IMG/VR virus record: IMGVR_UViG_3300044610_000169 | Length of the DNA stretch: 20,000 nucleotides | Direction: 5' to 3' (one strand) | Source of the DNA: an uncultured virus (IMG/VR IMGVR_UViG_3300044610_000169) | Lineage: Duplodnaviria > Heunggongvirae > Uroviricota > Caudoviricetes | Part shown: positions 2 to 11,356 of the stretch, piece after piece | How the letters are laid out: each line of letters opens with the position of its first letter | Position numbering within the stretch: position 1 is the first letter of the stretch | The notes under the pieces: model-generated | Seen by the model: only the letters and a program-made list of their open reading frames with translations | What the model was told of the DNA's origin: nothing | The model's database searches: none | Program-made: the position numbers and the translations under genes

Positions 2-700
2 AGCATTCTCTGCTGCCGCTTGAGCCAAAGCGTCATACCTTGCAGCATCACTGTCCTGAACGCCGATTTTTACAAACCTAGAGTCTACTTGATTCTCAGG
101 AAGCATGATTCTGCGACTTACCATCAACCCTCGCTTGGTCAAATACTCCTGTGATCTCCTGGCATCGGTTTCGCTAAGCGGGTTCCTCTCCCATGCGATG
201 TACTCTTGATCTCCAATCCTCCTGATGTTTGCGCCGAACAGCAATGCAAACTGCTTAAACCCACCTAGATCCTCGAAAACACCAGTTGGCTCAAGGTACT
301 CCGCTTGAACCGGATTTTCCATCGGAGTCGCACTGGCGAAAATCGTAAAACCAGCCTTCCTGATCCACTTAGCAGCCTCCTTAGCTTGCTGTGATTCGTC
401 GATGTTTTTAATTGAGTGAGCCTCGTCGAAAATCAAAACATCGGACTGCTTTGCGCCACCACTCCGCATTGCCGGATAGGTTATAAACTCAACGTCGTCG
501 ATGCCATACGCTTTCAGGTCATTCTTTATTTGACCAATGAGCTCAGTTCTTAATGTGACGTAAGTAAACTTTTTGGCACCAGCCTTTTTCAGTTCTCTGA
601 TCGCACCACCAAGCACAAACGTTTTGCCGCTTCCTGGCTCGCTTGCCAAAAGAAACAGCCCTTTGTTTTCCTTGTAAGCGTCTACGATACTACCTACGTC
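2..700 (-). other. SF2 helicase ATPase domain (SNF2/strawberry-notch-like) within the giant ORF, partial
   Basis: Walker A FLLASEPGSGKT (620-655), Walker B VLIFDEAH (DEAH 416-427) and motif III FASATP (SATP 323-334), all in the same frame with SF2-like spacing. Confidence 0.9.
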
Positions 701-3700
701 CTCGATTTGCTCATCGACGACCCTCTGAGGCATCCCAATTTTCAGCCCTTGAGATATTAGGTCCTTGGTGTCTTGACCAACAAGCCCTGCGACAACTCCA
801 GGAGATTTTCGACTGTCGGGCCTTCCGTCAACATCTTCTCTGAGTCGCCTGAGTTCAGTATCTTTGAGGTAAGCTGGGAGCCTTCCGCCAGTTGCATCAT
901 CAGGGACAGGAAGTCCTCTAAGCTCTTCCTGTAGTTTTTCGAACCCTTCGGCGGTAAGACTCCACGCCTCGTCTCCCTTGTTCCATCTTCCGCCTGCATT
1001 TCTGATCTGGTCTTTCCATTCATAGGTTTCACCCTTTATGTAAATTCTTCCGCTCGACGCATTTGCCCTCAGCCCGAACTTAGCGAGCAACTTGGTCGCT
1101 TTTTCATCGACCAGATTGCTGACGTTCTGATTCTCTTGTTCGATCTTGGCGGCGAACTCGGGTCGCTCAAGCAAGTAGCTAACGATCTGCTTTGCTCTTG
1201 GAGTGGTGGCGTTTTCAATCAACCATGACACATACCCAGGCTCTTGCTCAATAAGATCCTTGACTGTTTTGTTTGCGTGCTTGCCGAATCCAACAGGCTG
1301 GTCGCCGATCGCGACCTTCTCGGCAGACACAAGCTGCTCTGGGTCGAGCGTGTTCTCAAGCACTTGAATGAGCTTTGGCTTTACGGCTAGAAGTTCGCTT
1401 CCAATGAACGCCACGCCCGTAGTCTCGCCCCGTGCGATCGATTCCGCCCTCTCTTTGGCTTTTGCGATCGCTTGCTCTCGGTTAGCGCCAGCATTACCAA
1501 TGAACCTCCATCTAGTACCTATCTTCGCCCAAATGCCATACTGGTTGTTTGCAGCAACAGCAGCGATCTGCAAATCAGGCTTCCTTCCGTCAGTTATTTC
1601 TCCGAATACGACTTCTGCGGGAGTTGGCTCGGTCGGAGCCAAGAAGCTACCTCCGCCAGTTTGCTCGAGCCAACCCAAGACCTTCGGGAGGTTTGTATCT
1701 GGAGCGGCACCAATGAAGTTTCCGTCGGCAGAATCGACTTGATATCCGTAATTCGCCCACTCCATTCTCTTCCAGGAATTTACTCGCCCCATGTGAATCT
1801 TTTTGCCGAGACGTTTTGCCTCTTTGATCAAATCAACTTGCGATCTAAGAACACCAGCCTTGCTAAGCTCTTCGTCTGTTGGACGATTAAAATCCTTGTA
1901 CTGTCCCTTTGGATCAAAGCCTAGTTTCCACGGAGTGGACCCGCCAATGAAAAGCACATCAAAGTCGTCCCACGGAATCTGGCTCATGTTCTCGTCGACA
2001 CCGTCTTGCGCTACATACGCCAATGGCATCCCGTATTCTTTAACTCGCTCGTAGAATTGCTTCCATCGCTCGGTGGTTCCTTGCCAGTCACCGACCTTGT
2101 CCGGAACAACGACAAACTGTACTTTGTCTTGCAGACCAGCCTCAACGATCGAGTCAAGCAACGCGAAGAACTTGTCTTCGCTGAACGGCGCAGTTCCAGT
2201 GAACTCCGAAAACGCTCCGTTGTCGATCATGATGTGGCTGTAATCACCGCCATGTTTGATGTATTGCTTCGTTGCTGGAGTAATGACCAAGCCGAGACCA
2301 GGGTTTGCCTTTGCGGCATCTCTCACTGGGTTCGAGCTATGCCCAGTAAGGAAACTTGTTGGGTGATCGCCTACCCTGTGCCTGCGATTCATCCACTTTC
2401 GATACGCAGATCCGTCTGGGTAGTGCGTCTCGCTAGGTGCAACTTCCTTGCCGCCTTCAGCCTTGCCCTTGAGCGCATCATCAAACTTGCCACCTGGATC
2501 CCCTGTTAGATCCAAGCTATGCGCAACTCTCCACGCCGACTCGAAGTAAGGCTTGATCTCATCGAGCGCATCTGCCGCGAAGTTAGTCGACACGTTTTCC
2601 ACAAACGCAGCAAACGTCAAAACTCCATCTTCTATCTCAGCAATAGCGATCTGCACTGCAATTTTCGCGAGTTTCGCATCAAGACCCGAAGGCGGCTTGT
2701 TCTTAAACTCATCCTTGAACTGCTGGTACAGATCAGCCTTCTTTTTGCGCGCAGCATCTCTGGCTTGCTCGGTAGCGGTTGGCTTCTTGTCTTTCTTTAA
2801 CGATCGAGGCTTCTTTCGCTTCTTACCCTTCTTCTCGATCGGAGCGGCTTGTCTTGATCGCATCTGAGCCTCAAACTCAGCCCTCACCATGTCATCCATT
2901 GCGGCATTCTCATCGTCCACCGTGTCGGGTATTGCTATCTGCCCGTCCTCAGATTGCCATGTCGGCTCAGCTTTCAGCTTCGACTCTGTTCGCACGACAC
3001 CAGACCTGGACGCCTTCGAAAGCAACTCTAGCATGCGAGCGTGCTTCGCCTCCCCGGCTTGCGTAAAGTAGAACGTTCCAGCTATCCCCTGCGAAGGCTG
3101 CTGAAGTCCGAAGTCCATCAACTCCATAAGCTCGGACTCTTCGTCGTCAGTAAGCTTTGAACGATCTAGCCCGTTGTTGTTCAGTAGTCCAGTTCCGTCT
3201 TTGTGTGTGTATCGAACAACGGTATCGCCAACTTTCGCTTTCGGCATTTCCTCTCGTTTAGGCGATTTTGCCTCACGCTCTTTGTCGTAAGCGAACAACT
3301 CGTCCCGCACTGACGCTGGAACGTCTTTGCCTTGATCGATGCCTCGACGCACGACCGATGACCAACTCTCGCCCCAACCTGCCTCTTGTGCCTCAAGGCG
3401 GCTAGCTTGCCATGGTTCTTTTTGCGATGGTGCTACTGGCTGCTCCTGCGATTGCTGGTCTTTGGAGACTCCTGCCAGCGATTGCGCAGAAGGCTCTTTC
3501 CCTTCTGGCTGCTCCCACGGATCCTCGGCTGGCGGGGTAGTTCCCTCAAACGGATCGCCGGCAGTCGGCACCTCTGGCGTGGCAACGTTGCCGCTTGCTT
3601 GCTGATCGAAGAACTCCTTGTCGGTTAGCGGCTGGACTGGAGGTTGCTCTGCGGGTGGCGCTGAATCACTCAGTTTTTTAGCACCAGAGAAATTACTAAT

Positions 3701-5890
3701 TTCAAAAGCGTATGCCAGTAACTCCTCGTCGCTTTTGTCCTTAGCAAACGCTGCGTTATATTTTATTTCGTTATAACCATCGGCAAATATAGAGACCGAT
3801 CCATCCGAAACCCGAAAAACAATGGCGACCCATTCGCCGTTTTCGTCAGTGACTTGGTAATCCGCCCTGGTCCTGGTTTCCCTCGGTTTCAATCGCTGCT
3901 CTTCTAGATCCCTAGCGTTTTGTTCCTCGGTTTCTTTTTTCCATTGCTCAAACGACAATTTCCTACTGGCTACTTCCGCTTCCTCTAAAACTTTAGCTTG
4001 GTCAATTGAAACTGGAGTTCCGCTTATCACTGCGTTTTGCAAGGCATCGACGCCTGAACTACCAATCCCATTGGACTCCGCAAACTTCCTGGTAAAATTC
4101 CAGCCTAAGGGCAATCCATCAGAATTAAACAGAGATTCATATTCTGCCGGAATTGGATTGCCATTGTATGTAAGCCTTTGCTGCGACCCAAGCGGAGGCT
4201 GGAGCGGTGGCTGGACGGTCGGCTGCGGAACCACTGGAGGCACTGTCGCCGTGTCATTTGGCGGTGGAGTGGAAACGTTACCACCCCTAGCAGCCATCCT
4301 TTCAAAAAACTCCCTGTCTAAATCGGCCTGGGAAGCCTGCGGAACGAGCTCGCCATCTTCGGGGATCGGAACCTCGGCGAACTGCTCAGGTTGCACGGCA
4401 ACTTGCGGCTGTGGAGTCTGAGCCTGTTGCTGCTGGTTGATGAACTCTTGGTCCAACTGCTTCGAAGCTTCTGCTTCTTGCTGACCTAGCTGCTCGATCT
4501 CACTTTCAACGTTCGCCATGCGTTCGCGACGGCTGTTGCCTTCGATTCCAGCCGCTTTGGCGTCCGACTCCGAAACGAAGTTCTTGGCACGAATCTGCTC
4601 AAGTTGGTATCGGCGAGCGCGGATAGACGACAATCCAGCACCACCAACCGCCGGTACTCCAAGCAAGAACGCCATCGGCAGAGCTGCTTCCTTGGTTTGC
4701 TCCCATCCGTTGGCAAACGCATCCGCGATCGTTTTCTCTTTGGCGTCCTTGTCGATGTACTGCGCAACGTACTGACCGAGACCGCTCGTGACGCCTTGCA
4801 AATACTCCTCACCCAACTCTGGAGGTGCTTTCTTCAACGCTTCCCACAAATACTGGCGAGCTGCCTTCATCGCCCCTTGCTTGAGCGAAACGGTGCCACC
4901 AAACGGATTCGGAACGATACCCTCGACCAGACCTGCGACCGTTGCTGTGCCGCCAGCAAGCAACCGCAATTTCCAGTCGTCCTCCATGCCGATTTCTTTG
5001 AGTTGGTCAACCTCTTGAGCGTATTGACCTGGAAACGCAGCCGACGTGATACCAGCTAGTGTTCCAGCACCCTGAAAAACGCCTTTTGTCGTTGCGCCTT
5101 TCAAACCGATCGCTGTTGGAACGCGACCAACCGCACCAGCCGCCTGAAATGCTGCCTTTGCTCCAGGGACTCCTGCCGCAGCACCTCTAGCCAGTAACGT
5201 TCCAGCCCCTTGACCAGCAGCACGCCCAAGACCACCAGCACCAACGATGGTCGCCATCCACGGTGCCATTTGGAGAGCTTGAAGAGGACCGCGTTCGTAC
5301 CACGGATCGCTTGGACGAGCAGGATCGAACTCTTGTGCGGCCATTGCGTCAAGTTTGCGAATAGTTTCGATTTCCTCTGCGGTCCCCCCAGCACCGAACA
5401 ACTCCTTGACAGGTTGAGACACCTGCGCGACGCCTCTGCTGACAGCACCCATGGTACGATTGAGGATTCCGCCGCGATCGTCACCCATCTGCTGCGAGAC
5501 ACCTGACGACACCCGCAACACCTCTTCCAGTTGCTCAGGTTTCAGCTTGCGAATGATTTCGAGACGCTTCGCTCGATCGCCGACGTTCATCTGGAGATCT
5601 TTGGCAATGCTGACCACCTTTGGGTCCGCTTGCTCGGCATAGGCTCGCTGCTGCCGACGCTGATTGACTTCCTTTTTCCTTTGCGAAAGCGAATACAAAT
5701 CAAGAAAGCTATTTCCCGTATCCTTTAACCTACTGTCGATAATCGCCTGTTCGCGTGGATCTTCATACGCAGGGATCGCAAGTCCTTCCGAAGCAGGAGC
5801 GACGCTACTCTCCACAACTGGCGTTTGCGATAAGCTGCCAGTGCTCTTTTGCCTCTGCACTTCCCTGAACATCTCTAGGAAATCACCCAT
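2..5890 (-). CDS. Giant multidomain (polyvalent / DarB-like) probable internal virion protein, >1960 aa, truncated by the window edge; contains a TGT/DpdA-like domain and an SF2 helicase
   Basis: ATG at 5890 preceded by AAAAGGT (MGDFLEMFREVQRQ...). No stop was seen in the parts translated by hand, and the ORF track lists no terminated ORF in this frame, consistent with it running off the window. Contains a Gly/Ala-rich N-terminal region, P/Q/E linkers, DNGAFS...HMGRVNS...DSADG, GFGKH, and helicase motifs SEPGSGKT, LIFDEAH and ASATP. Confidence 0.92.
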   Translation of the reverse strand, partial: MGDFLEMFREVQRQKSTGSLSQTPVVESSVAPASEGLAIPAYEDPREQAIIDSRLKDTGNSFLDLYSLSQRKKEVNQRRQQRAYAEQADPKVVSIAKDLQMNVGDRAKRLEIIRKLKPEQLEEVLRVSSGVSQQMGDDRGGILNRTMGAVSRGVAQVSQPVKELFGAGGTAEEIETIRKLDAMAAQEFDPARPSDPWYERGPLQALQMAPWMATIVGAGGLGRAAGQGAGTLLARGAAAGVPGAKAAFQAAGAVGRVPTAIGLKGATTKGVFQGAGTLAGITSAAFPGQYAQEVDQLKEIGMEDDWKLRLLAGGTATVAGLVEGIVPNPFGGTVSLKQGAMKAARQYLWEALKKAPPELGEEYLQGVTSGLGQYVAQYIDKDAKEKTIADAFANGWEQTKEAALPMAFLLGVPAVGGAGLSSIRARRYQLEQIRAKNFVSESDAKAAGIEGNSRRERMANVESEIEQLGQQEAEASKQLDQEFINQQQQAQTPQPQVAVQPEQFAEVPIPEDGELVPQASQADLDREFFERMAARGGNVSTPPPNDTATVPPVVPQPTVQPPLQPPLGSQQRLTYNGNPIPAEYESLFNSDGLPLGWNFTRKFAESNGIGSSGVDALQNAVISGTPVSIDQAKVLEEAEVASRKLSFEQWKKETEEQNARDLEEQRLKPRETRTRADYQVTDENGEWVAIVFRVSDGSVSIFADGYNEIKYNAAFAKDKSDEELLAYAFEISNFSGAKKLSDSAPPAEQPPVQPLTDKEFFDQQASGNVATPEVPTAGDPFEGTTPPAEDPWEQPEGKEPSAQSLAGVSKDQQSQEQPVAPSQKEPWQASRLEAQEAGWGESWSSVVRRGIDQGKDVPASVRDELFAYDKEREAKSPKREEMPKAKVGDTVVRYTHKDGTGLLNNNGLDRSKLTDDEESELMELMDFGLQQPSQGIAGTFYFTQAGEAKHARMLELLSKASRSGVVRTESKLKAEPTWQSEDGQIAIPDTVDDENAAMDDMVRAEFEAQMRSRQAAPIEKKGKKRKKPRSLKKDKKPTATEQARDAARKKKADLYQQFKDEFKNKPPSGLDAKLAKIAVQIAIAEIEDGVLTFAAFVENVSTNFAADALDEIKPYFESAWRVAHSLDLTGDPGGKFDDALKGKAEGGKEVAPSETHYPDGSAYRKWMNRRHRVGDHPTSFLTGHSSNPVRDAAKANPGLGLVITPATKQYIKHGGDYSHIMIDNGAFSEFTGTAPFSEDKFFALLDSIVEAGLQDKVQFVVVPDKVGDWQGTTERWKQFYERVKEYGMPLAYVAQDGVDENMSQIPWDDFDVLFIGGSTPWKLGFDPKGQYKDFNRPTDEELSKAGVLRSQVDLIKEAKRLGKKIHMGRVNSWKRMEWANYGYQVDSADGNFIGAAPDTNLPKVLGWLEQTGGGSFLAPTEPTPAEVVFGEITDGRKPDLQIAAVAANNQYGIWAKIGTRWRFIGNAGANREQAIAKAKERAESIARGETTGVAFIGSELLAVKPKLIQVLENTLDPEQLVSAEKVAIGDQPVGFGKHANKTVKDLIEQEPGYVSWLIENATTPRAKQIVSYLLERPEFAAKIEQENQNVSNLVDEKATKLLAKFGLRANASSGRIYIKGETYEWKDQIRNAGGRWNKGDEAWSLTAEGFEKLQEELRGLPVPDDATGGRLPAYLKDTELRRLREDVDGRPDSRKSPGVVAGLVGQDTKDLISQGLKIGMPQRVVDEQIEDVGSIVDAYKENKGLFLLASEPGSGKTFVLGGAIRELKKAGAKKFTYVTLRTELIGQIKNDLKAYGIDDVEFITYPAMRSGGAKQSDVLIFDEAHSIKNIDESQQAKEAAKWIRKAGFTIFASATPMENPVQAEYLEPTGVFEDLGGFKQFALLFGANIRRIGDQEYIAWERNPLSETDARRSQEYLTKRGLMVSRRIMLPENQVDSRFVKIGVQDSDAARYDALAQAAAENA
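1215..1305 (-). other. Small FGKH-motif domain (ExoX C-terminal/DUF3820-like) within the giant ORF
   Basis: DQPVGFGKHANKTVKDLIEQEPGYVSWLIEN matches the FGK(H/Y)xGxxxxxxxxxDPxYxxW pattern of that family. Confidence 0.7.
1665..2350 (-). other. tRNA-guanine-transglycosylase (TGT)/DpdA-like TIM-barrel domain within the giant ORF
   Basis: IMIDNGAFS (DNGAFS 2207-2224), FVVVPDKVGD, PLAYVAQDG, DVLFIGGST, KIHMGRVNS and VDSADG occur in the same order as the TGT-family motifs DSGxF, pD, V-Q/H-G, iGG, H-x-G and DS-D. Confidence 0.75.
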
Positions 5891-5941: not shown

Positions 5942-8203
5942 TCAGCTTATTTGACCTGTCACGCTTCTTGACGAAGACGGTGGTTTTCGCAGCACTTCCT
6001 CTGGGATTTCTCCTCGGTATGACTTGCTCATTGGACCTGACCTAGAGGGGTATTTCTTCTGCTCCGTAGTTGGCTTTTCGTACTTGCTCGCTTTTCCTTT
6101 GCCAACCTTGATCGTATTGCCCGTCGTCCAGTCGTACCCGTCTAAATACCGAGACACCTTAAATGCAGCCTCTAAGTAGGCCATATCTTCCTCGCTAAGC
6201 TGCGAGACAGGGATATTGAAGAATTGACCATCCTTTCGCTTCACAGTGATCGTCTGCTGACCAGAAGGCTGTCTAGATGCTGCTGCAAGAGACTCCACGA
6301 CGAGAGTTCCTTCCAGAGTTTTCCCTTCTGCGTTTTTCCATGTCCTCAGTTTTCCTTGGTCCTGCGTTGCATCACTTGCAGGCGACGGAGCAACTGAACT
6401 TGCTGCTGGTGGCTCAGCCTGCTCAAGTTGACCAAGTAGCGATGGGCTTGCCGGTGGGCTTGCGGGTTTCATCCTGGGGTTTTTTCTTTGAGTTTCAATC
6501 GACTCTCTAAGAGAATCCGCAATCTCCTGGTCCTTCGAAGGCGGAAGCCCAGTCATTAGCGACTTAGCTCGTTGGCGGTTGTCGGTGTCTCTGTCTTGCA
6601 TGACTTTACCGACTCTTTTTTGGGTTTCCTTGACCTGAGCAGAAATGTCGCCATAGATTTGACCAGGAATTTCCAGGACGTCCTTTTGGCTTCCCCATGC
6701 AGGCAATTTCTTTTTGGTGGGCTGACCTGAATTGCGACCAGCGACCAATTTTGCTACGTCATCCTCCGTGAATCCTGCCGCATCCAGCGTTGCCACTGCT
6801 GCTGCCTGTTGTTCGCGTGTCGCACTGGGGTTTGCAGCGATCGCCTCAGCTTCCTTAACCTTCGGGTCGTCCCTGCTTATGCGCATTGGAGCGGCAGTCG
6901 CCTCTGGCAACGCATTGTAAGTCGCCATTTGCGCTGGCGTTGACGCCCCTGGCGAAACATCAGCAGTCGCAGCCGGCGCAGGCTTCTTCCTGCCGCCCAT
7001 TATCGTCAGTCCACCTCTGCCGCCGCCCATGGCTGTCCCAGGCTTACCGACTGGCTCGTCGTACTCTGGCATTGTTCCGCCAGGACGGATCGAAGCGGTG
7101 ACACGGTTGCCTGTCGCGGGATTGATGCCGTAATCGATCATTCCGAGGCCGTATCTACCTCCTGGCTTGCCAAGCGTTTCCTTTTGAGGGTTGACGATGC
7201 TCTGATCGGCACCACGCATCCGAGCGTACTCTGGGTTCTCTGGGTCGAAATAGTTTGTGCCTGCGCTTCTACCAGGGTTTGCAGCATCGTAAGCCATGTC
7301 TACTAAATTGGCATTGTAAGGAGCGCCGCCTGGGAGGTACTGCGTTGCAGGCTGCTGCTGCGGAGGTTGTGCAGGGTTCGCCAGCACGTTCGCAGCACCA
7401 AACACTTGTGGCGAGGTATAGCTCCCTGGCTGATACGCACCTGGACCGACCGGAGCACCCATCCCGCCTTGTGCCATCACTGGAGACGCACCGAACGTTG
7501 GCTGACCGCCAGTGTACGACGCTTGGGGATTCGCCGCTGGAGTTGTCGCAGGAGCGTTTGGCGGTTGTGCTGCTGGTTGACCTTGCCCTTGAGGTTGCGA
7601 CAAGCCTTGCAGGAACTTCTGCTTCGCCAAGTAGTCGTTGTGCATCTGCGCCTGGATGTTCTCTGGAGTAACAGGGGTGTCTGGACCTGCCGCTTCGAGC
7701 CTAGCCTGCGCGGCTGCATACGCATTGGCGTAGTTCTTCTCGTCGCTGAAATACTCAGCCTCAGTCATGGGTGGCTTCGTTTGCAGTGCTGCTGGACCCA
7801 TCTGCTGCATCATCGGCTGAACCTTGCCCGTCGACCTGGACATTCGCATGCGGGATTGCAGGTTCCCCAATGCTTGCGCTCGTTGAGTGCCGTCGATGTT
7901 CGTGTCTCGCATGATCTGCCTCATGGCACGCTGATCTTGCCGTAGCGCCCTGACCGTATCGGGATCGTACAAACCGCTACGGATCTCCTGCTCGAGCATT
8001 GCGTCGTCTTCCCCGATCGACGGCTCACGCATCTCCCGCATTGCACCCATGCGCTGCATGTCGTACTGTTGGTCTTGCGTTCTCTGACGCATCTGCTGGT
8101 CGGCTCGCTGCTGCTGGAGGACCATCGCCATGCCGTACTTGGTCCGTGGGTTCTCTTGGTCTGGCGCAATTCCAGCGGCTTGGTGTCTGAGTACGATCGG
8201 CAT
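5942..8203 (-). CDS. Q/P/A/G-rich, largely low-complexity protein (putative internal virion/ejection protein) with C-terminal SHD1-like domain
   Basis: 753-aa ORF with ATG start, upstream TAAGGA and co-orientation with its neighbours. Lies directly before the giant ORF. RTWKNAEGKTLEGTL...VKRKDGQFFNIPVSQLSEEDMAYL occurs at about 6168-6349. Confidence 0.85.
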   Translation of the reverse strand: MPIVLRHQAAGIAPDQENPRTKYGMAMVLQQQRADQQMRQRTQDQQYDMQRMGAMREMREPSIGEDDAMLEQEIRSGLYDPDTVRALRQDQRAMRQIMRDTNIDGTQRAQALGNLQSRMRMSRSTGKVQPMMQQMGPAALQTKPPMTEAEYFSDEKNYANAYAAAQARLEAAGPDTPVTPENIQAQMHNDYLAKQKFLQGLSQPQGQGQPAAQPPNAPATTPAANPQASYTGGQPTFGASPVMAQGGMGAPVGPGAYQPGSYTSPQVFGAANVLANPAQPPQQQPATQYLPGGAPYNANLVDMAYDAANPGRSAGTNYFDPENPEYARMRGADQSIVNPQKETLGKPGGRYGLGMIDYGINPATGNRVTASIRPGGTMPEYDEPVGKPGTAMGGGRGGLTIMGGRKKPAPAATADVSPGASTPAQMATYNALPEATAAPMRISRDDPKVKEAEAIAANPSATREQQAAAVATLDAAGFTEDDVAKLVAGRNSGQPTKKKLPAWGSQKDVLEIPGQIYGDISAQVKETQKRVGKVMQDRDTDNRQRAKSLMTGLPPSKDQEIADSLRESIETQRKNPRMKPASPPASPSLLGQLEQAEPPAASSVAPSPASDATQDQGKLRTWKNAEGKTLEGTLVVESLAAASRQPSGQQTITVKRKDGQFFNIPVSQLSEEDMAYLEAAFKVSRYLDGYDWTTGNTIKVGKGKASKYEKPTTEQKKYPSRSGPMSKSYRGEIPEEVLRKPPSSSRSVTGQIS

Positions 8204-8219
8204 TTACAGAATCCTTAAA

Positions 8220-9350
8220 TCAAACGTTTGTGTTTTCACCAGCCACTTGCTGGGTCCGAATGTAATCTTTGATCAACGCCAAGCGATTCGATGCGCTAGA
8301 AAAGTGAACAATATAGGCGTTTTCCAGTCCATCGGCAAATCCCGAGTACCAGTATTGCCAGTTCCATCGATAATCGAGGTGCCTGAGCGAAGCCCCAAGC
8401 GCGACCAAATCGTCGATCTGCTTGCCCACCCACACTTGCTCTGCGCAGTGCATGGTGCCAATGTCAACTTCCGGTCTGCGCCAAATACCGCTGGATTCCC
8501 GGCGACACAAGACCACGCCTGAGTTGACGGAATGCTCCGTGTCCTCGATCTTGACTTTTGAGCGAGACTCGACCGATTTTCGCTCTTTCGTCATCCATTC
8601 CCGGTGCCGGTGCAGAAACTTGCTGGACTCTTCGCAAATACCGATCGATTCGGGGTACTCGTCGAAAATGGACGGCGATTGCTCTCGAACCACGCAATCG
8701 GCATCCAGGAACAGCGTTTCGTCGTACTGGCTTGCGAAATGACCCGTCCGGAACTTCTCGAGTCCCCACCAGTCCTCGGTGTCGTTGTCGAGACCGATAA
8801 AGTCGGCTCCGCACCGATCGGCGTAAGCCTGCATGAGCGGCCAAGTCTCCTTGGCTATCTGCATCATCTCAAGACCCACGGCAACAGACACGATGCAACG
8901 AGTCTTGGTCGTAGGGGGTCTGCGGTTGCGCCAAAGCACGTAGGCTCGCTCGATCGGAACGGCAGGCTTTGGGGTGTTCAGTCCTGCGCTCACTTCGTTG
9001 TGGAACTCCACGGTCCACTCAAACCACTCCTCGGGAGATCCGTACCTCGGCGGGAGTCGGATCAAAATCGCAGCAACCTTCTTGCGGCACTCGCAACCTG
9101 CTGGCATGTACCGCTTCCACTTCTCGAAAGCTTCGGGAGTCCCGAGCTCAATGCGATGCAGCTTCGACCACGCTCTGCGTCCCTCAATGGCTTTTCTAGC
9201 CTCGCGGTCAAGAATCACATTGCCACTGGTCGGCTTGACCGTCACGGTTGTCAGCCAGCCTCGCTTGCCAAGCACGGCACCACACGTGCAAACGTATGGA
9301 CGGATGTCATTCGAGCAAGCCTTATCGCAATGCGGACAGCTACACACCAC
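8220..9350 (-). CDS. Fusion protein: Cys-rich N-terminus + Erv/Alr-like sulfhydryl oxidase domain + GT-A (GT8-like) glycosyltransferase
   Basis: GTG at 9350 has AGGAGG 7 nt upstream (alternative ATG at 9377). Erv-like motifs: GRRAWSKLH, PAGCEC, WTVEFHNEV, KP. GT motifs: YADRCGADF, LFLDADCVV (DxD), NSGVVL, EQ, RWNWQ, IVHF. Confidence 0.85.
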   Translation of the reverse strand: MVCSCPHCDKACSNDIRPYVCTCGAVLGKRGWLTTVTVKPTSGNVILDREARKAIEGRRAWSKLHRIELGTPEAFEKWKRYMPAGCECRKKVAAILIRLPPRYGSPEEWFEWTVEFHNEVSAGLNTPKPAVPIERAYVLWRNRRPPTTKTRCIVSVAVGLEMMQIAKETWPLMQAYADRCGADFIGLDNDTEDWWGLEKFRTGHFASQYDETLFLDADCVVREQSPSIFDEYPESIGICEESSKFLHRHREWMTKERKSVESRSKVKIEDTEHSVNSGVVLCRRESSGIWRRPEVDIGTMHCAEQVWVGKQIDDLVALGASLRHLDYRWNWQYWYSGFADGLENAYIVHFSSASNRLALIKDYIRTQQVAGENTNV

Positions 9351-10569
9351 TGCAATCCCTCCTTGAGCAACAGTCATCGGAACTTACCGTCACATAGTAA
9401 CCACACGAACCAGTTCCGAAGATAGTGTCGCGACAAAGGCAAGCAAAATCTAGCTCGGTTATCACGTATGGACCAAAAAGGAAGCACGACTCCCCCGTCT
9501 CGCTTGCGCATCTATATTCGATCGGGTTGCGAGTGCTGGTGCCTTCACCTGTTTGCGTGCAACCACCAATGTTTGCCAAGACGTACTTGTTGATCCCTGG
9601 CTCGGCAGTGCAAGAAAACTCGACGATAAACTGACCGCAACACTGCTGTTCCTCATGCTTCCATGCGTTGTCGACTCTATCGTATTCGATCTGAAAACAA
9701 CACGGCTCGAGGTTTATCAGGCGAGCGCAATCCTCTGGATCAGGCCAAATGCAAACGTTCAGCACTGCGGGTAGTTCAATCTGGTTGTCGGTTCCTTCTT
9801 CGGTGTTGTCGTCGCAAAGGCACAATCCGCATCGCGGACAATTGCGGTTTCTGGTTTCAGGCGGATTGCTGTTGTAGTGCCGATAGAACTCAAAGTCATC
9901 AACCAGCATGTCCTCTTCGCTCATCCCGAAGCCGCTGTACCATCCATTTGCAAACAACCCAGGAGACTCCATCGACACGGAGCCAAGTACGGAATTGTCG
10001 ACACCGGCGCAGAAGCTATCTTCGTCGATCGTCGCCCAAAACCGCCTTGAGTTTCCCGTTTCAGAGAAAATTTGCAGTTCTTTCAAGATCGATTCGCTGC
10101 CCCCGCTGCCAACCCCAAGCCGAATCCAACTCCGGTCGGCGGGATCCGCAGACCCTCCCGCAGCTCCACCAAGCCGCTCGTACTCCGCGAAGTAGTACGA
10201 AGTCGCCTCGCACTCCTCCGGATCGCCCGAGACCGTCCTGACTACGTTCAGGTAGATCCGCCACTTCTGACCGTCAGAGTATTCCGAACCAGCTCGGTTC
10301 TCTTCCTCTTGAGTCACCACAGAGACGTACATGGAGCCAACTTCGTCGGGATGCTTTACGTTGCAGATCGCTTTCGCGTCTGGGACTTCGCATCTGGCTC
10401 TCCACGTTGGAGTGTCCACGATGTAGTAGTCGCCAGGAGTGTCGCACCAACCCTTGCCTAAGAACGGAGCAGAAACGCGATTGCCCAACGGAGTTCCCGT
10501 CTCGTCTCTTGTGAAGTCGTCGGAGAAGATCAGGCATTCGTCTGAACAGCAGCACTTTCGCCAAGCCAT
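9340..10569 (-). CDS. Cysteine-rich protein (about 29 Cys in 409 aa), putative virion surface/tail protein
   Basis: ATG at 10569 lies immediately after the upstream stop (10571-10573), giving MAWRKCCCSDECLIFSDDFTRD. Beta-rich/lectin-like N-terminal half (FSDDF...VDDFEFY) and Cys-dense C-terminal half. Confidence 0.8.
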   Translation of the reverse strand: MAWRKCCCSDECLIFSDDFTRDETGTPLGNRVSAPFLGKGWCDTPGDYYIVDTPTWRARCEVPDAKAICNVKHPDEVGSMYVSVVTQEEENRAGSEYSDGQKWRIYLNVVRTVSGDPEECEATSYYFAEYERLGGAAGGSADPADRSWIRLGVGSGGSESILKELQIFSETGNSRRFWATIDEDSFCAGVDNSVLGSVSMESPGLFANGWYSGFGMSEEDMLVDDFEFYRHYNSNPPETRNRNCPRCGLCLCDDNTEEGTDNQIELPAVLNVCIWPDPEDCARLINLEPCCFQIEYDRVDNAWKHEEQQCCGQFIVEFSCTAEPGINKYVLANIGGCTQTGEGTSTRNPIEYRCASETGESCFLFGPYVITELDFACLCRDTIFGTGSCGYYVTVSSDDCCSRRDCSGV

Positions 10570-10570
10570 G

Positions 10571-11356
10571 TTATGCTCCGCTACATTCGCAGTCGTTCTC
10601 GCCGCTTGGCTCGCACTCGCAAGCCTCCATCTCCTCGGGGTCGCACTTCGCATCGACGATGTAATACTTTCCTTCTTGGAACTCTACGTATCCTTTCGTG
10701 CCTGCTAGCATGCCATCGTAAACCCTGTTCGGATCGTAGATCGTTGCAGTGTGCGGCCAGTAACCCGACATTTGCCTGACGCACGCTTCGCACGAATCCG
10801 AGTCGATCAAATCCTCAGTCGACTGGAATCGAAACAACTTGTTTTCTGTGTGGACAAGTATCCAGTTGATCACCTTGCCGTTGTGATCCCGAAGGATTGC
10901 TATTTCATCCTCGAGACACTTCGGAGGACCGCCGTAGGGAGATCCGTCGACCACACCTGGGTTTTGACCAAGCCGCCACTTAACCTCGACAGGCGACGGC
11001 GGTACGTAATGTACGTCGATATCTGCCGTCCCTTGGGTTGGCAGGAAAGCTGGAAAAACCTCTCCGATGCGGTATCGCTTGGCTCCACCAGAGGTCACGC
11101 GACACCCAAAAGGCTTGGCTACCGATATCCCAGGCTTCTCGGCGCTGTTCTCTTTGTAGTCGATGAACTTCAGGATCCTCGGATCGAACCCGCGGCAAAC
11201 GACGTAGTTCGGATATTTGTCCTCGCACGCCACCTGCATCATCGCACAGTACGACCAATCGCCATGCACTTGCAAATCGTCGTGATCGCCACGCATCGCG
11301 TTGTACGGCGGCGGTACTTGAAACCCTGGCGTTGGACGTCGTCTTTTACGAAACAT
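10571..11356 (-). CDS. Hypothetical Cys-containing virion-module protein (12 Cys, acidic CEC-repeat tail)
   Basis: 261-aa ORF separated by 1 nt from each neighbour; ends AKCDPEEMEACECEPSGENDCECSGA. Confidence 0.8.
   Translation of the reverse strand: MFRKRRRPTPGFQVPPPYNAMRGDHDDLQVHGDWSYCAMMQVACEDKYPNYVVCRGFDPRILKFIDYKENSAEKPGISVAKPFGCRVTSGGAKRYRIGEVFPAFLPTQGTADIDVHYVPPSPVEVKWRLGQNPGVVDGSPYGGPPKCLEDEIAILRDHNGKVINWILVHTENKLFRFQSTEDLIDSDSCEACVRQMSGYWPHTATIYDPNRVYDGMLAGTKGYVEFQEGKYYIVDAKCDPEEMEACECEPSGENDCECSGA

Follow-up and report, generated by a model that had tools for sequence, protein, structure and literature searches.

A candidate tail-tip maturation cassette in an uncultured tailed phage couples an Erv-like domain and a glycosyltransferase to cysteine-rich proteins

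A 20,000-nucleotide stretch of DNA from an uncultured virus of the Caudoviricetes (IMG/VR record IMGVR_UViG_3300044610_000169), here called the window, carries three consecutive genes at 8220-11356 on the minus strand, of which two encode cysteine-rich proteins and the third encodes a fusion of an Erv/ALR-like domain with a glycosyltransferase. We found that genes for this type of Erv domain and genes for cysteine-rich proteins adjoin each other at locus after locus among related viruses. We consider it probable, from the sequences and structure models, that the three genes are a tail-tip maturation cassette in which an Erv-type disulfide oxidase and a glycosyltransferase act on a cysteine-rich tail protein. 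The features of the cassette are as follows (aa, amino acids; ORF, open reading frame; HMM, hidden Markov model).

10571..11356, minus strand: 261-aa tail-module protein with 12 cysteines (4.6%), from the ORF and its translation
9340..10569, minus strand: 409-aa protein with 29 cysteines (7.1%), read from its ORF and predicted fold as a receptor-binding tail-tip protein
8220..9377, minus strand: 385-aa fusion protein with 14 cysteines, comprising an N-terminal cysteine cluster, an Erv/ALR-like domain and a GT-A domain
9282..9344, minus strand: N-terminal cysteine cluster of the fusion protein, from cysteine positions, homologue alignment and model
8913..9215, minus strand: Erv/ALR-fold domain, residues ~55-155, from profile, fold match and conservation
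9087..9095, minus strand: C95-E-C97 pair of the Erv-like domain, from HMM alignments to 2hj3, 3gwl and 1oqc
8238..8909, minus strand: GT-A glycosyltransferase domain, residues ~157-380, from fold match, Foldseek and a sub-threshold Pfam match
8697..8705, minus strand: D225-A-D227 (DxD), putative metal and nucleotide-sugar motif of the glycosyltransferase domain, from conservation
9340..9377, minus strand: 38-nt overlap in which the fusion gene starts before the 409-aa gene has ended, read from the sequence

All long ORFs of the window lie on the minus strand, and the cassette is transcribed in the order 261-aa gene, 409-aa gene, 385-aa fusion gene. The first junction consists of a stop codon, 1 nt and an ATG; at the second, the 38-nt overlap, whose geometry recurs in relatives, suggests co-transcription and coupled translation. 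A longer, 437-aa frame for the 409-aa gene, opening at 10653, is less likely than the inner ATG start, because the alignment with homologues begins at the inner ATG, which is preceded by GGAG at a distance of 7 nt. An initial annotation made from the letters of the sequence had described three abutting or overlapping genes, two of them unusually cysteine-rich and without an evident signal peptide. All three ORFs are present as described; the cysteines of the 409-aa protein include a CCC at residues 6-8 and CC pairs, and neither cysteine-rich translation, judged by eye and not with a predictor, has a hydrophobic start resembling a signal. Cysteine is far more frequent here than in the surrounding genes: the remaining eight genes of the window together hold 14 cysteines in 5457 residues (0.26%), with none in the 1963-aa and 753-aa proteins downstream of the cassette.

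The fusion protein has 67 homologues at E<=1e-3 in a collection of 5.8 billion proteins, all unnamed or 'hypothetical', 40 of which carry a precomputed match to PF04777 (Evr1_Alr). A profile built from 36 of them reached 17 solved Erv/ALR/QSOX sequences at E values from 2.3e-9 to 4e-4, among them AtErv1 (2.3e-9), pB119L of African swine fever virus (ASFV; 3.2e-9), ALR (1e-8), yeast Erv1 (1.4e-7), Erv2p (9e-6) and QSOX (3e-4); phmmer with the window protein alone gave E 0.055 against 2hj3. A 95%-identical relative, in genome G002, passes the Evr1_Alr cut-off with 29.5 bits. In the AlphaFold model of the fusion protein (predicted local distance difference test (pLDDT) score 86.7, predicted template modelling (pTM) score 0.81), the Erv part folds into five helices at residues 58-75, 81-88, 96-107, 115-131 and 142-150, and superposes on Erv2p (1jr8_A; Z 10.8, root-mean-square deviation (rmsd) 2.8, 92 of 105 residues, model residues 58-153) and on the Erv1 core (3w4y_A; Z 10.2, rmsd 3.2, 101 of 113 residues). 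A Z of about 10 is by itself middling for helical bundles, yet it agrees with the sequence profile. The Erv/Alr match that the initial annotation anticipated is thus found both by profile (E 2e-9 to 9e-6) and by structure, and residues ~55-155 have, on profile and model, the fold and homology of the Erv family.

Conservation falls on the residues that would line a flavin. The motifs quoted in the initial annotation (G66-x3-W70-x3-H74, P92-A-G-C95-E-C97, W121-x4-H126-N-E-V129, K137-P138 and D225-A-D227) are all in the protein. W70, C95, C97 and F119 are invariant in the 36 homologues, at least 90% of them retain H74, H126, N127, V129 and P138, and K137-P138 is present. The W..H residues, the cysteine pair and the HNxVN..K stretch align with their counterparts in 2hj3, 3gwl and 1oqc; we take W..H and HNxVN..K to be the contacts with flavin adenine dinucleotide (FAD) in Erv enzymes. 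Ahead of this domain, C12, C14, C17, C21, C30 and C32 form a cluster with the family consensus CxxC...CxC, present by eye in about half of the 36 homologues and modelled (pLDDT ~68-70) as short beta hairpins (strands 2-4, 8-10, 35-37 and 40-42), a candidate zinc ribbon or shuttle-disulfide module. A single prediction of two copies of the fusion protein with FAD (score 0.00, mark 0.42) has no bearing on a homodimer either way.

The oxidase-like domain of the initial annotation stands in fold and homology, but its active-site pair is C-x-C and not the C-x-x-C of the family. C95 and C97 fall on both cysteines of the flavin-side CxxC of 2hj3, 3gwl and 1oqc in HMM alignments, with a one-residue gap; the flavin-proximal C-x-x-C that marks the family at the start of the third helix is absent from the window protein, which reads C95-E-C97 there. 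The shortened pair is the rule among its relatives, occurring in 32 of the 36 aligned homologues (the other four have CxxC) and in 62 of 62 viral loci carrying the Erv part. Because of this pair we file the domain as a divergent Erv variant and not as a canonical member, and since we know of no Erv enzyme with C-x-C at its flavin-side site, oxidase activity is not to be assumed. The mimivirus R596 paper, in its accessible portion, applies the label CXXC to the disulfide next to FAD and gives C-x-C solely as one of the mobile shuttle motifs that cellular Erv enzymes have (PMC3509050).

We scanned viral contigs with the fusion-family alignment and obtained 71 loci: 62 Erv-bearing, five with fusions to a mannosyltransferase and four cut at a contig end. 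The adjoining upstream ORF was at least 200 aa long and at least 5% cysteine (20-47 cysteines) in 60 of 60 loci that had an Erv-glycosyltransferase gene and at least 900 nt of upstream DNA, compared with 2 of 238 among the remaining ORFs of that minimum length at these loci. This count leaves aside L010 and L037, whose upstream DNA is short and whose visible parts contain 10.8% and 4.2% cysteine, respectively. The 60 loci amount to 25 clusters at 90% identity, 14 at 70% and six at 50%, and their upstream cysteine-rich proteins fall into six BLAST families. Only the upstream families of L011 and L013 were joined by hhalign (95.9% probability; the others below 15%); common ancestry of all the cysteine-rich partners is, on sequence, neither shown nor excluded.

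The Erv domain extends far beyond the fusions. A profile of this domain alone, built from 22 sequences, matched 7717 library clusters at E<=1e-3 and 1396 at E<=1e-10. Among the best 150, C-x-C was the prevailing motif (118, against 26 with CxxC, four with Cx3C and two with no motif by pattern) and 122 were shorter than 230 aa; ten clusters that we looked up had no informative name. Scanning viral contigs with ten of these short proteins gave 113 relatives, of which 80 were kept: 74 stand-alone Erv genes (128-211 aa), five contigs already seen and one 382-aa form. In 80 of 80 loci the Erv gene had C-x-C and the upstream ORF contained 6.0-11.8% cysteine. Downstream of the stand-alone genes (L096-L175), seven of ten ORFs tested encode a calcineurin-like metallophosphoesterase of ~290-350 aa and none of the ten a glycosyltransferase; the pairing is independent of the glycosyltransferase domain. 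Conversely, a scan with the 409-aa family gave 18 loci, and an Erv gene lay immediately downstream in all 17 that had downstream DNA. The genomic association that the initial annotation proposed as a check is therefore present in each scan (60/60, 80/80 and, in the converse direction, 17/17), and the pairing of Erv with cysteine-rich genes is close to obligate in both directions. In a FastTree phylogeny of 172 sequences over 103 columns of the Erv domain, the glycosyltransferase fusions appear at several places among the stand-alone forms, which we do not read as a count of fusion events.

The predicted structure of the 409-aa partner suggests what it is. The model of the 409-aa protein (pLDDT 85.2, pTM 0.85) comprises two beta domains, a ConA-like lectin sandwich (residues ~10-240) and a second domain (~269-396). 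The lectin domain matches the receptor-binding domain of phage TM4 gp23 (9n6a; Z 17.0, rmsd 3.0, 183 residues aligned), a baseplate chain of mycobacteriophage Douge (8zdo; Z 16.5) and the carbohydrate-binding module (CBM) CBM2 of the phage J-1 Dit protein (5ly8; Z 14.8), followed by CBM66 and other lectins; Foldseek led to galectins and CBM66. We read the protein, on this model, as a lectin-fold receptor-binding tail-tip protein and the candidate substrate of the fusion enzyme. The initial annotation had placed the three genes in a tail/internal-protein module: the tail module holds, but the 409-aa partner, on its lectin fold, reads as a tail receptor-binding protein and not an internal one. 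Like the siphophage proteins TM4 gp23, Douge and J-1 Dit, it combines this fold with a distal position in the tail module; unlike them, it has 7% cysteine, terminal poly-cysteine tags and an obligate Erv neighbour.

The 409-aa protein opens with a poly-cysteine tag (CCC..C), and a cluster in its linker, C244-x2-C-x2-C-x-C252, is among the 18 cysteine columns that are invariant in 20 homologues; most of its cysteines sit singly, scattered through the beta strands. In five of the 20 homologues, probably one clade, loss of C362 coincides with cysteines at columns 369 and 390 together, too weak a signal to assign disulfide pairs. Poly-cysteine starts are widespread among the partners: of 107 distinct upstream proteins with 250 aa or more, 81 have a cluster containing CC at their start, for example MGxxGxCCCxC, and most of the others begin CxxC...CxxC. 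Candidate roles for such a start are an inter-chain cystine knot, metal binding and a handle for the enzyme. The MGxxGxCCCxC type, seen in upstream genes of L002-L175, also recalls eukaryotic dual-acylation signals. The 261-aa protein has a conserved N-terminal part (MFRKRRRPTP...), a variable C-terminal part and an acidic CxC...CxC tail at its end. It gave no Pfam, no PHROG and no usable ESM Atlas match; it has 245 homologues at E<=1e-3, and the best 120 of them have a median of seven cysteines, the close relatives of the window protein having 11-12.

The second half of the fusion protein is the DxD glycosyltransferase that the initial annotation had seen there, with a GT-A fold and invariant D225 and D227. 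Model residues 157-380 superpose best on A64R of Paramecium bursaria chlorella virus 1 (PBCV-1; 2p6w_A, Z 18.6, rmsd 2.9, 185 of 206 residues), followed by Skp1 galactosyltransferase (Z 14.7), glycogenin (14.6), UGGT and LgtC (13.1); the top Foldseek matches were A64R, glycogenin and UGGT (E 4.6e-7). D225, D227, N285-S286-G287, H310, E313-Q314 and H358 are invariant in the 36 homologues, whose profile aligns the D225-A-D227 stretch with the DxD region of glycogenin (E ~0.1). H358 is presumably, by analogy, the histidine of a C-terminal metal site, and the roles of the glycogenin-like NSG and (D/E)Q motifs are likewise assumed from glycogenin. Two relatives exceed the Glyco_transf_8 cut-off of Pfam (24.3 bits), L033 with 26.0 bits and P0114 with 26.1 bits. 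The only PHROGs match among the three cassette genes is to this domain (phrog_28746, function unknown).

Other partner domains recur on both halves of the fusion. On a contig from a metagenome-assembled genome (MAG) titled Pirellula, L095:8896-11447 encodes a canonical CGNC Erv domain (42.6 bits) fused to a GT4 glycosyltransferase of GT-B fold (46.3 bits), directly after a 430-aa, 25-cysteine protein that opens GNCCCGCCDEC, again in a tail module. Among 28 long library matches, four are Erv+GT4 (P0102, P0128, P0134 and P0151), three have a weak GT8 match, one joins Erv to a sulfotransferase (P0162, 574 aa, C-x-C) and four have tandem Erv repeats (P0091, P0092, P0113 and P0211; the second copy in P0091 lacks the cysteine pair); P0101 (668 aa) joins a C-x-C Erv domain to a phosphoribosyltransferase-like region. 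In one library protein, P0110 (456 aa), a 26-cysteine tail-type protein that starts GCNCC and a C-x-C Erv domain share a single frame, a candidate Rosetta-stone-like fusion of the usual neighbours.

The GT8-like domain, for its part, is fused to Mannosyl_trans3 in place of Erv on five viral contigs (L036, L045, L048, L051 and L072; 676-682 aa) and on MAG contigs L074-L076. These fusions adjoin collagen-repeat or Ser/Gly-rich fibre genes, and beside them lies a small cysteine-rich protein with a C-terminal membrane helix; as a hidden Erv domain this protein was rejected (hhalign 0.5%, no Pfam match). A separate, stand-alone Erv gene of 193 aa with CGRC (54.4 bits) occurs at L094:10736-11317 on a Tepidisphaeraceae chromosome (G009, with L084). 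Its neighbours are a ClpB-like AAA+ gene and ORFs of great length taken as RHS/YD-like, a GT8-like gene lies ~15 kb away, and the surroundings are not obviously phage.

The relatives that bear the cassette are tailed phages. Genome G002, 59.7 kb and estimated to be 92% complete, encodes Erf, an exonuclease, a helicase and DNA methylases, and has a 4823-aa gene after the cassette. G004, a complete 59.7-kb genome with terminal repeats, encodes the large terminase, portal, Mu-F, capsid and tail tube proteins and a 738-aa protein that we take as the tape measure; after four further genes come a 359-aa, 25-cysteine protein and then the Erv-glycosyltransferase gene, at the end of the tail module. 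The pair in L095 likewise follows an 810-aa gene taken as the tape measure, and in neither G004 nor L095 is it followed by a giant protein. The large terminase of G004 (L090:102-2576, 824 aa) has LAGLIDADG and Hom_end matches and probably contains an intein.

In the window, the cassette is followed by a 753-aa Q/P/M-rich protein (5942-8203, minus strand) and then by a giant protein (2-5890, minus strand) that exceeds 1963 aa here, corresponds to the 4823-aa protein of G002 and carries a ResIII/DEAD helicase part and a phrog_15826 region. These two cysteine-free proteins may be ejected internal proteins.

The hosts are possibly Planctomycetota, as judged from the MAG titles of relatives: eight of 12 matches in genome collections are MAGs titled Pirellula, Pirellulaceae, Schlesneria or Planctomycetota, most of them matching the glycosyltransferase half alone. 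PF04777 occurred in 0 of 301 sampled genomes of this phylum (that of G006), so the Erv domain does not look like a usual host gene. Nor is it familiar from phages: across 50,697 deposited phage records the Erv part matched nothing apart from a record of Mollivirus, which we take to be a giant virus of amoebae, at E 0.5; the glycosyltransferase part matched four records of Synechococcus phage S-CAM7 alone; and our literature searches, whose coverage excludes subscription papers, found no phage-encoded Erv enzyme. Related phages also encode a fatty-acid hydroxylase (G002, L086:16834-17376) and a lipid desaturase domain (G004, L090:19168-19720), oxygen-dependent lipid enzymes that fit aerobic hosts.

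How the cassette might work can be sketched from these sequences and by analogy with known Erv enzymes. The many cysteines of the 409-aa lectin-fold receptor-binding protein would be meant for disulfides, the 261-aa protein would be a second, moderately cysteine-rich tail component, and the 385-aa protein would be the maturation enzyme of both. Its Erv-like domain would bind FAD and pass electrons from substrate thiols through C95-x-C97 to the flavin and on to oxygen, with the N-terminal cysteine cluster perhaps relaying them to C95-x-C97, and disulfides would so be made de novo in the reducing host cytoplasm, as they are by the Erv oxidases of poxviruses, ASFV, mimivirus and baculoviruses. 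The GT-A domain, with a DxD of Mn type, would glycosylate the same tail protein, using a nucleotide sugar as donor. A scan of 139 ORFs of G002 and G004 at E<=1e-4 (four border-crossing ORFs were omitted) turned up no gene of thioredoxin, glutaredoxin or Dsb type, so any electron relay would have to be direct.

Several observations weigh against this proposal, among them that missing redox partner. In the enzyme, the flavin-side C-x-C departs from the FAD-proximal C-x-x-C of the literature, as far as the accessible portion of that source goes (PMC3509050); the window has S130 where most homologues have N, at the last position of HNxVN; and the window protein itself scores below the Pfam cut-offs for both halves, with 22.1 bits for Evr1_Alr (cut-off 27.6, residues 94-137) and 21.6 for Glyco_transf_8. 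In the presumed substrate, the number of cysteines (29) is odd, and C244-x2-C-x2-C-x-C252 and the terminal poly-cysteine tags resemble metal sites no less than disulfides. In the gene pairing, the locus counts are phylogenetically non-independent, because related phages share gene order by descent, and in four of the five mannosyltransferase-glycosyltransferase loci the small upstream protein has 5.6-6.8% cysteine with no detected Erv domain.

The metal-like clusters bear most directly on an alternative in which the Erv fold is kept and its chemistry changed, the domain serving as a flavin-independent isomerase or holdase or delivering metal or iron-sulfur to the cysteine clusters of the tail protein. 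The replacement of C-x-x-C by C-x-C, in 32/36 homologues and 62/62 viral loci, is what such a change might leave, the partners' C-x2-C-x2-C-x-C and N-terminal CCC or CxxC...CxxC would be its targets, and the pairing data fit any cysteine-directed maturation factor equally well. We nevertheless think it unlikely. The flavin-lining residues (W..H, HNxVN and K) are the most conserved positions of the domain, which makes loss of the flavin unexpected; a canonical CxxC form occupies the same genomic position within the same family (L095); and the cysteines of the 409-aa protein are for the most part the single, scattered ones of its beta strands.

Less likely still, in our view, is that only the glycosyltransferase half functions, the Erv part being a remnant or docking module, the neighbouring cysteines metal-bound or reduced, and the pairing an inherited order of tail genes. 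The shared descent of the loci allows for this, and the glycosyltransferase domain does exist in an Erv-free form, the fusion with a mannosyltransferase that neighbours collagen-like fibre genes. However, at 74 of the 80 loci the Erv gene is a protein of 128-211 aa with no glycosyltransferase, every one of them after a cysteine-rich gene; both active-site cysteines are invariant; and the pairing holds across six BLAST families of upstream proteins and in the candidate single-chain fusion P0110. A last alternative, in which the fusion protein travels in the virion or acts early as an effector on the host, for instance by oxidising or glycosylating parts of its envelope, would suit the position of the gene, with tail genes on one side and on the other the giant, probably ejected proteins, one of 753 aa and one of >1963 aa that has a helicase domain. 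It seems very improbable, as nucleotide sugars are cytoplasmic substrates, the adjacent cysteine-rich tail protein is the conserved partner in every locus examined, and the giant protein does not follow the fusion in G004 or L095.

The maturation cassette that we favour has its closest parallels in eukaryotic viruses. Among viruses, Erv oxidases are regarded as characteristic of the large DNA viruses of eukaryotes, and the oxidases of poxviruses, ASFV, mimivirus and baculoviruses form disulfides in virion proteins inside a reducing compartment. Like ASFV pB119L (3gwl), the second-best sequence match of the family profile, and like vaccinia E10R, mimivirus R596 and baculovirus Ac92, the fusion protein is a virus-encoded Erv fold and, by analogy, a presumed maker of virion disulfides; unlike them, it belongs to a tailed phage of a bacterium, has C-x-C and is fused to a glycosyltransferase. 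Poxviruses use a thioredoxin-like relay partner, unlike G002 and G004, in which no such partner was found. Viral Erv enzymes are described, in the accessible portion of the R596 paper, as often compact, lacking a shuttle disulfide or bearing additional fused domains (PMC3509050).

Cellular Erv1/ALR and Erv2p (2hj3, 1oqc, 3w4y and 1jr8) share with the phage domain the helical flavin-binding fold and the W..H, cysteine-pair and HNxVN..K motifs, whereas the phage site is one residue shorter and lacks the structural C-terminal disulfide; and C-x-C, a mobile shuttle pair in the cellular enzymes as far as that source describes them, is at the flavin side in the phage (PMC3509050). Like QSOX, the fusion joins an Erv module to another protein-processing module in one chain, and the tandem Erv of P0091, with its degenerate copy, recalls the pseudo-Erv/Erv pseudodimer of QSOX; the partner domain, however, is a glycosyltransferase and not thioredoxin, the Trx-Erv fusion being described as eukaryote-only in the accessible part of its source (PMC3616962). 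The glycosyltransferase domain shares its GT-A fold and DxD with PBCV-1 A64R, which according to the title of Protein Data Bank entry 2p6w glycosylates the major capsid protein, and its NSG and (D/E)Q motifs with glycogenin; it differs from A64R, glycogenin and LgtC in its low identity to them (12-17%), its GT8 score under the cut-off and its fused oxidase-type domain.

A wider picture can be offered tentatively, and we hold it with less conviction than the cassette itself: tailed phages, probably of Planctomycetota and perhaps of other aerobic bacteria, might possess a large, undescribed C-x-C Erv clade dedicated gene by gene to hyper-cysteine-rich tail-tip proteins, building in the cytoplasm a disulfide-cross-linked and sometimes glycosylated or sulfated receptor-binding organelle in which the poly-cysteine tag is an enzyme handle or an inter-chain cystine knot. 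If so, bacterial viruses would have a counterpart of the cytoplasmic disulfide pathway of giant viruses, one that is directly testable because each enzyme adjoins its likely substrate. For enzymologists, the clade would offer a natural C-x-C variant of the Erv site to set against C-x-x-C, and its compact members are candidate helpers for producing proteins rich in disulfides, and possibly glycosylated, in the cytoplasm of bacteria. The cassette also suggests that some phage receptor-binding proteins may depend for their stability or function on covalent cross-links and glycans, which would bear on phage host range and environmental persistence.

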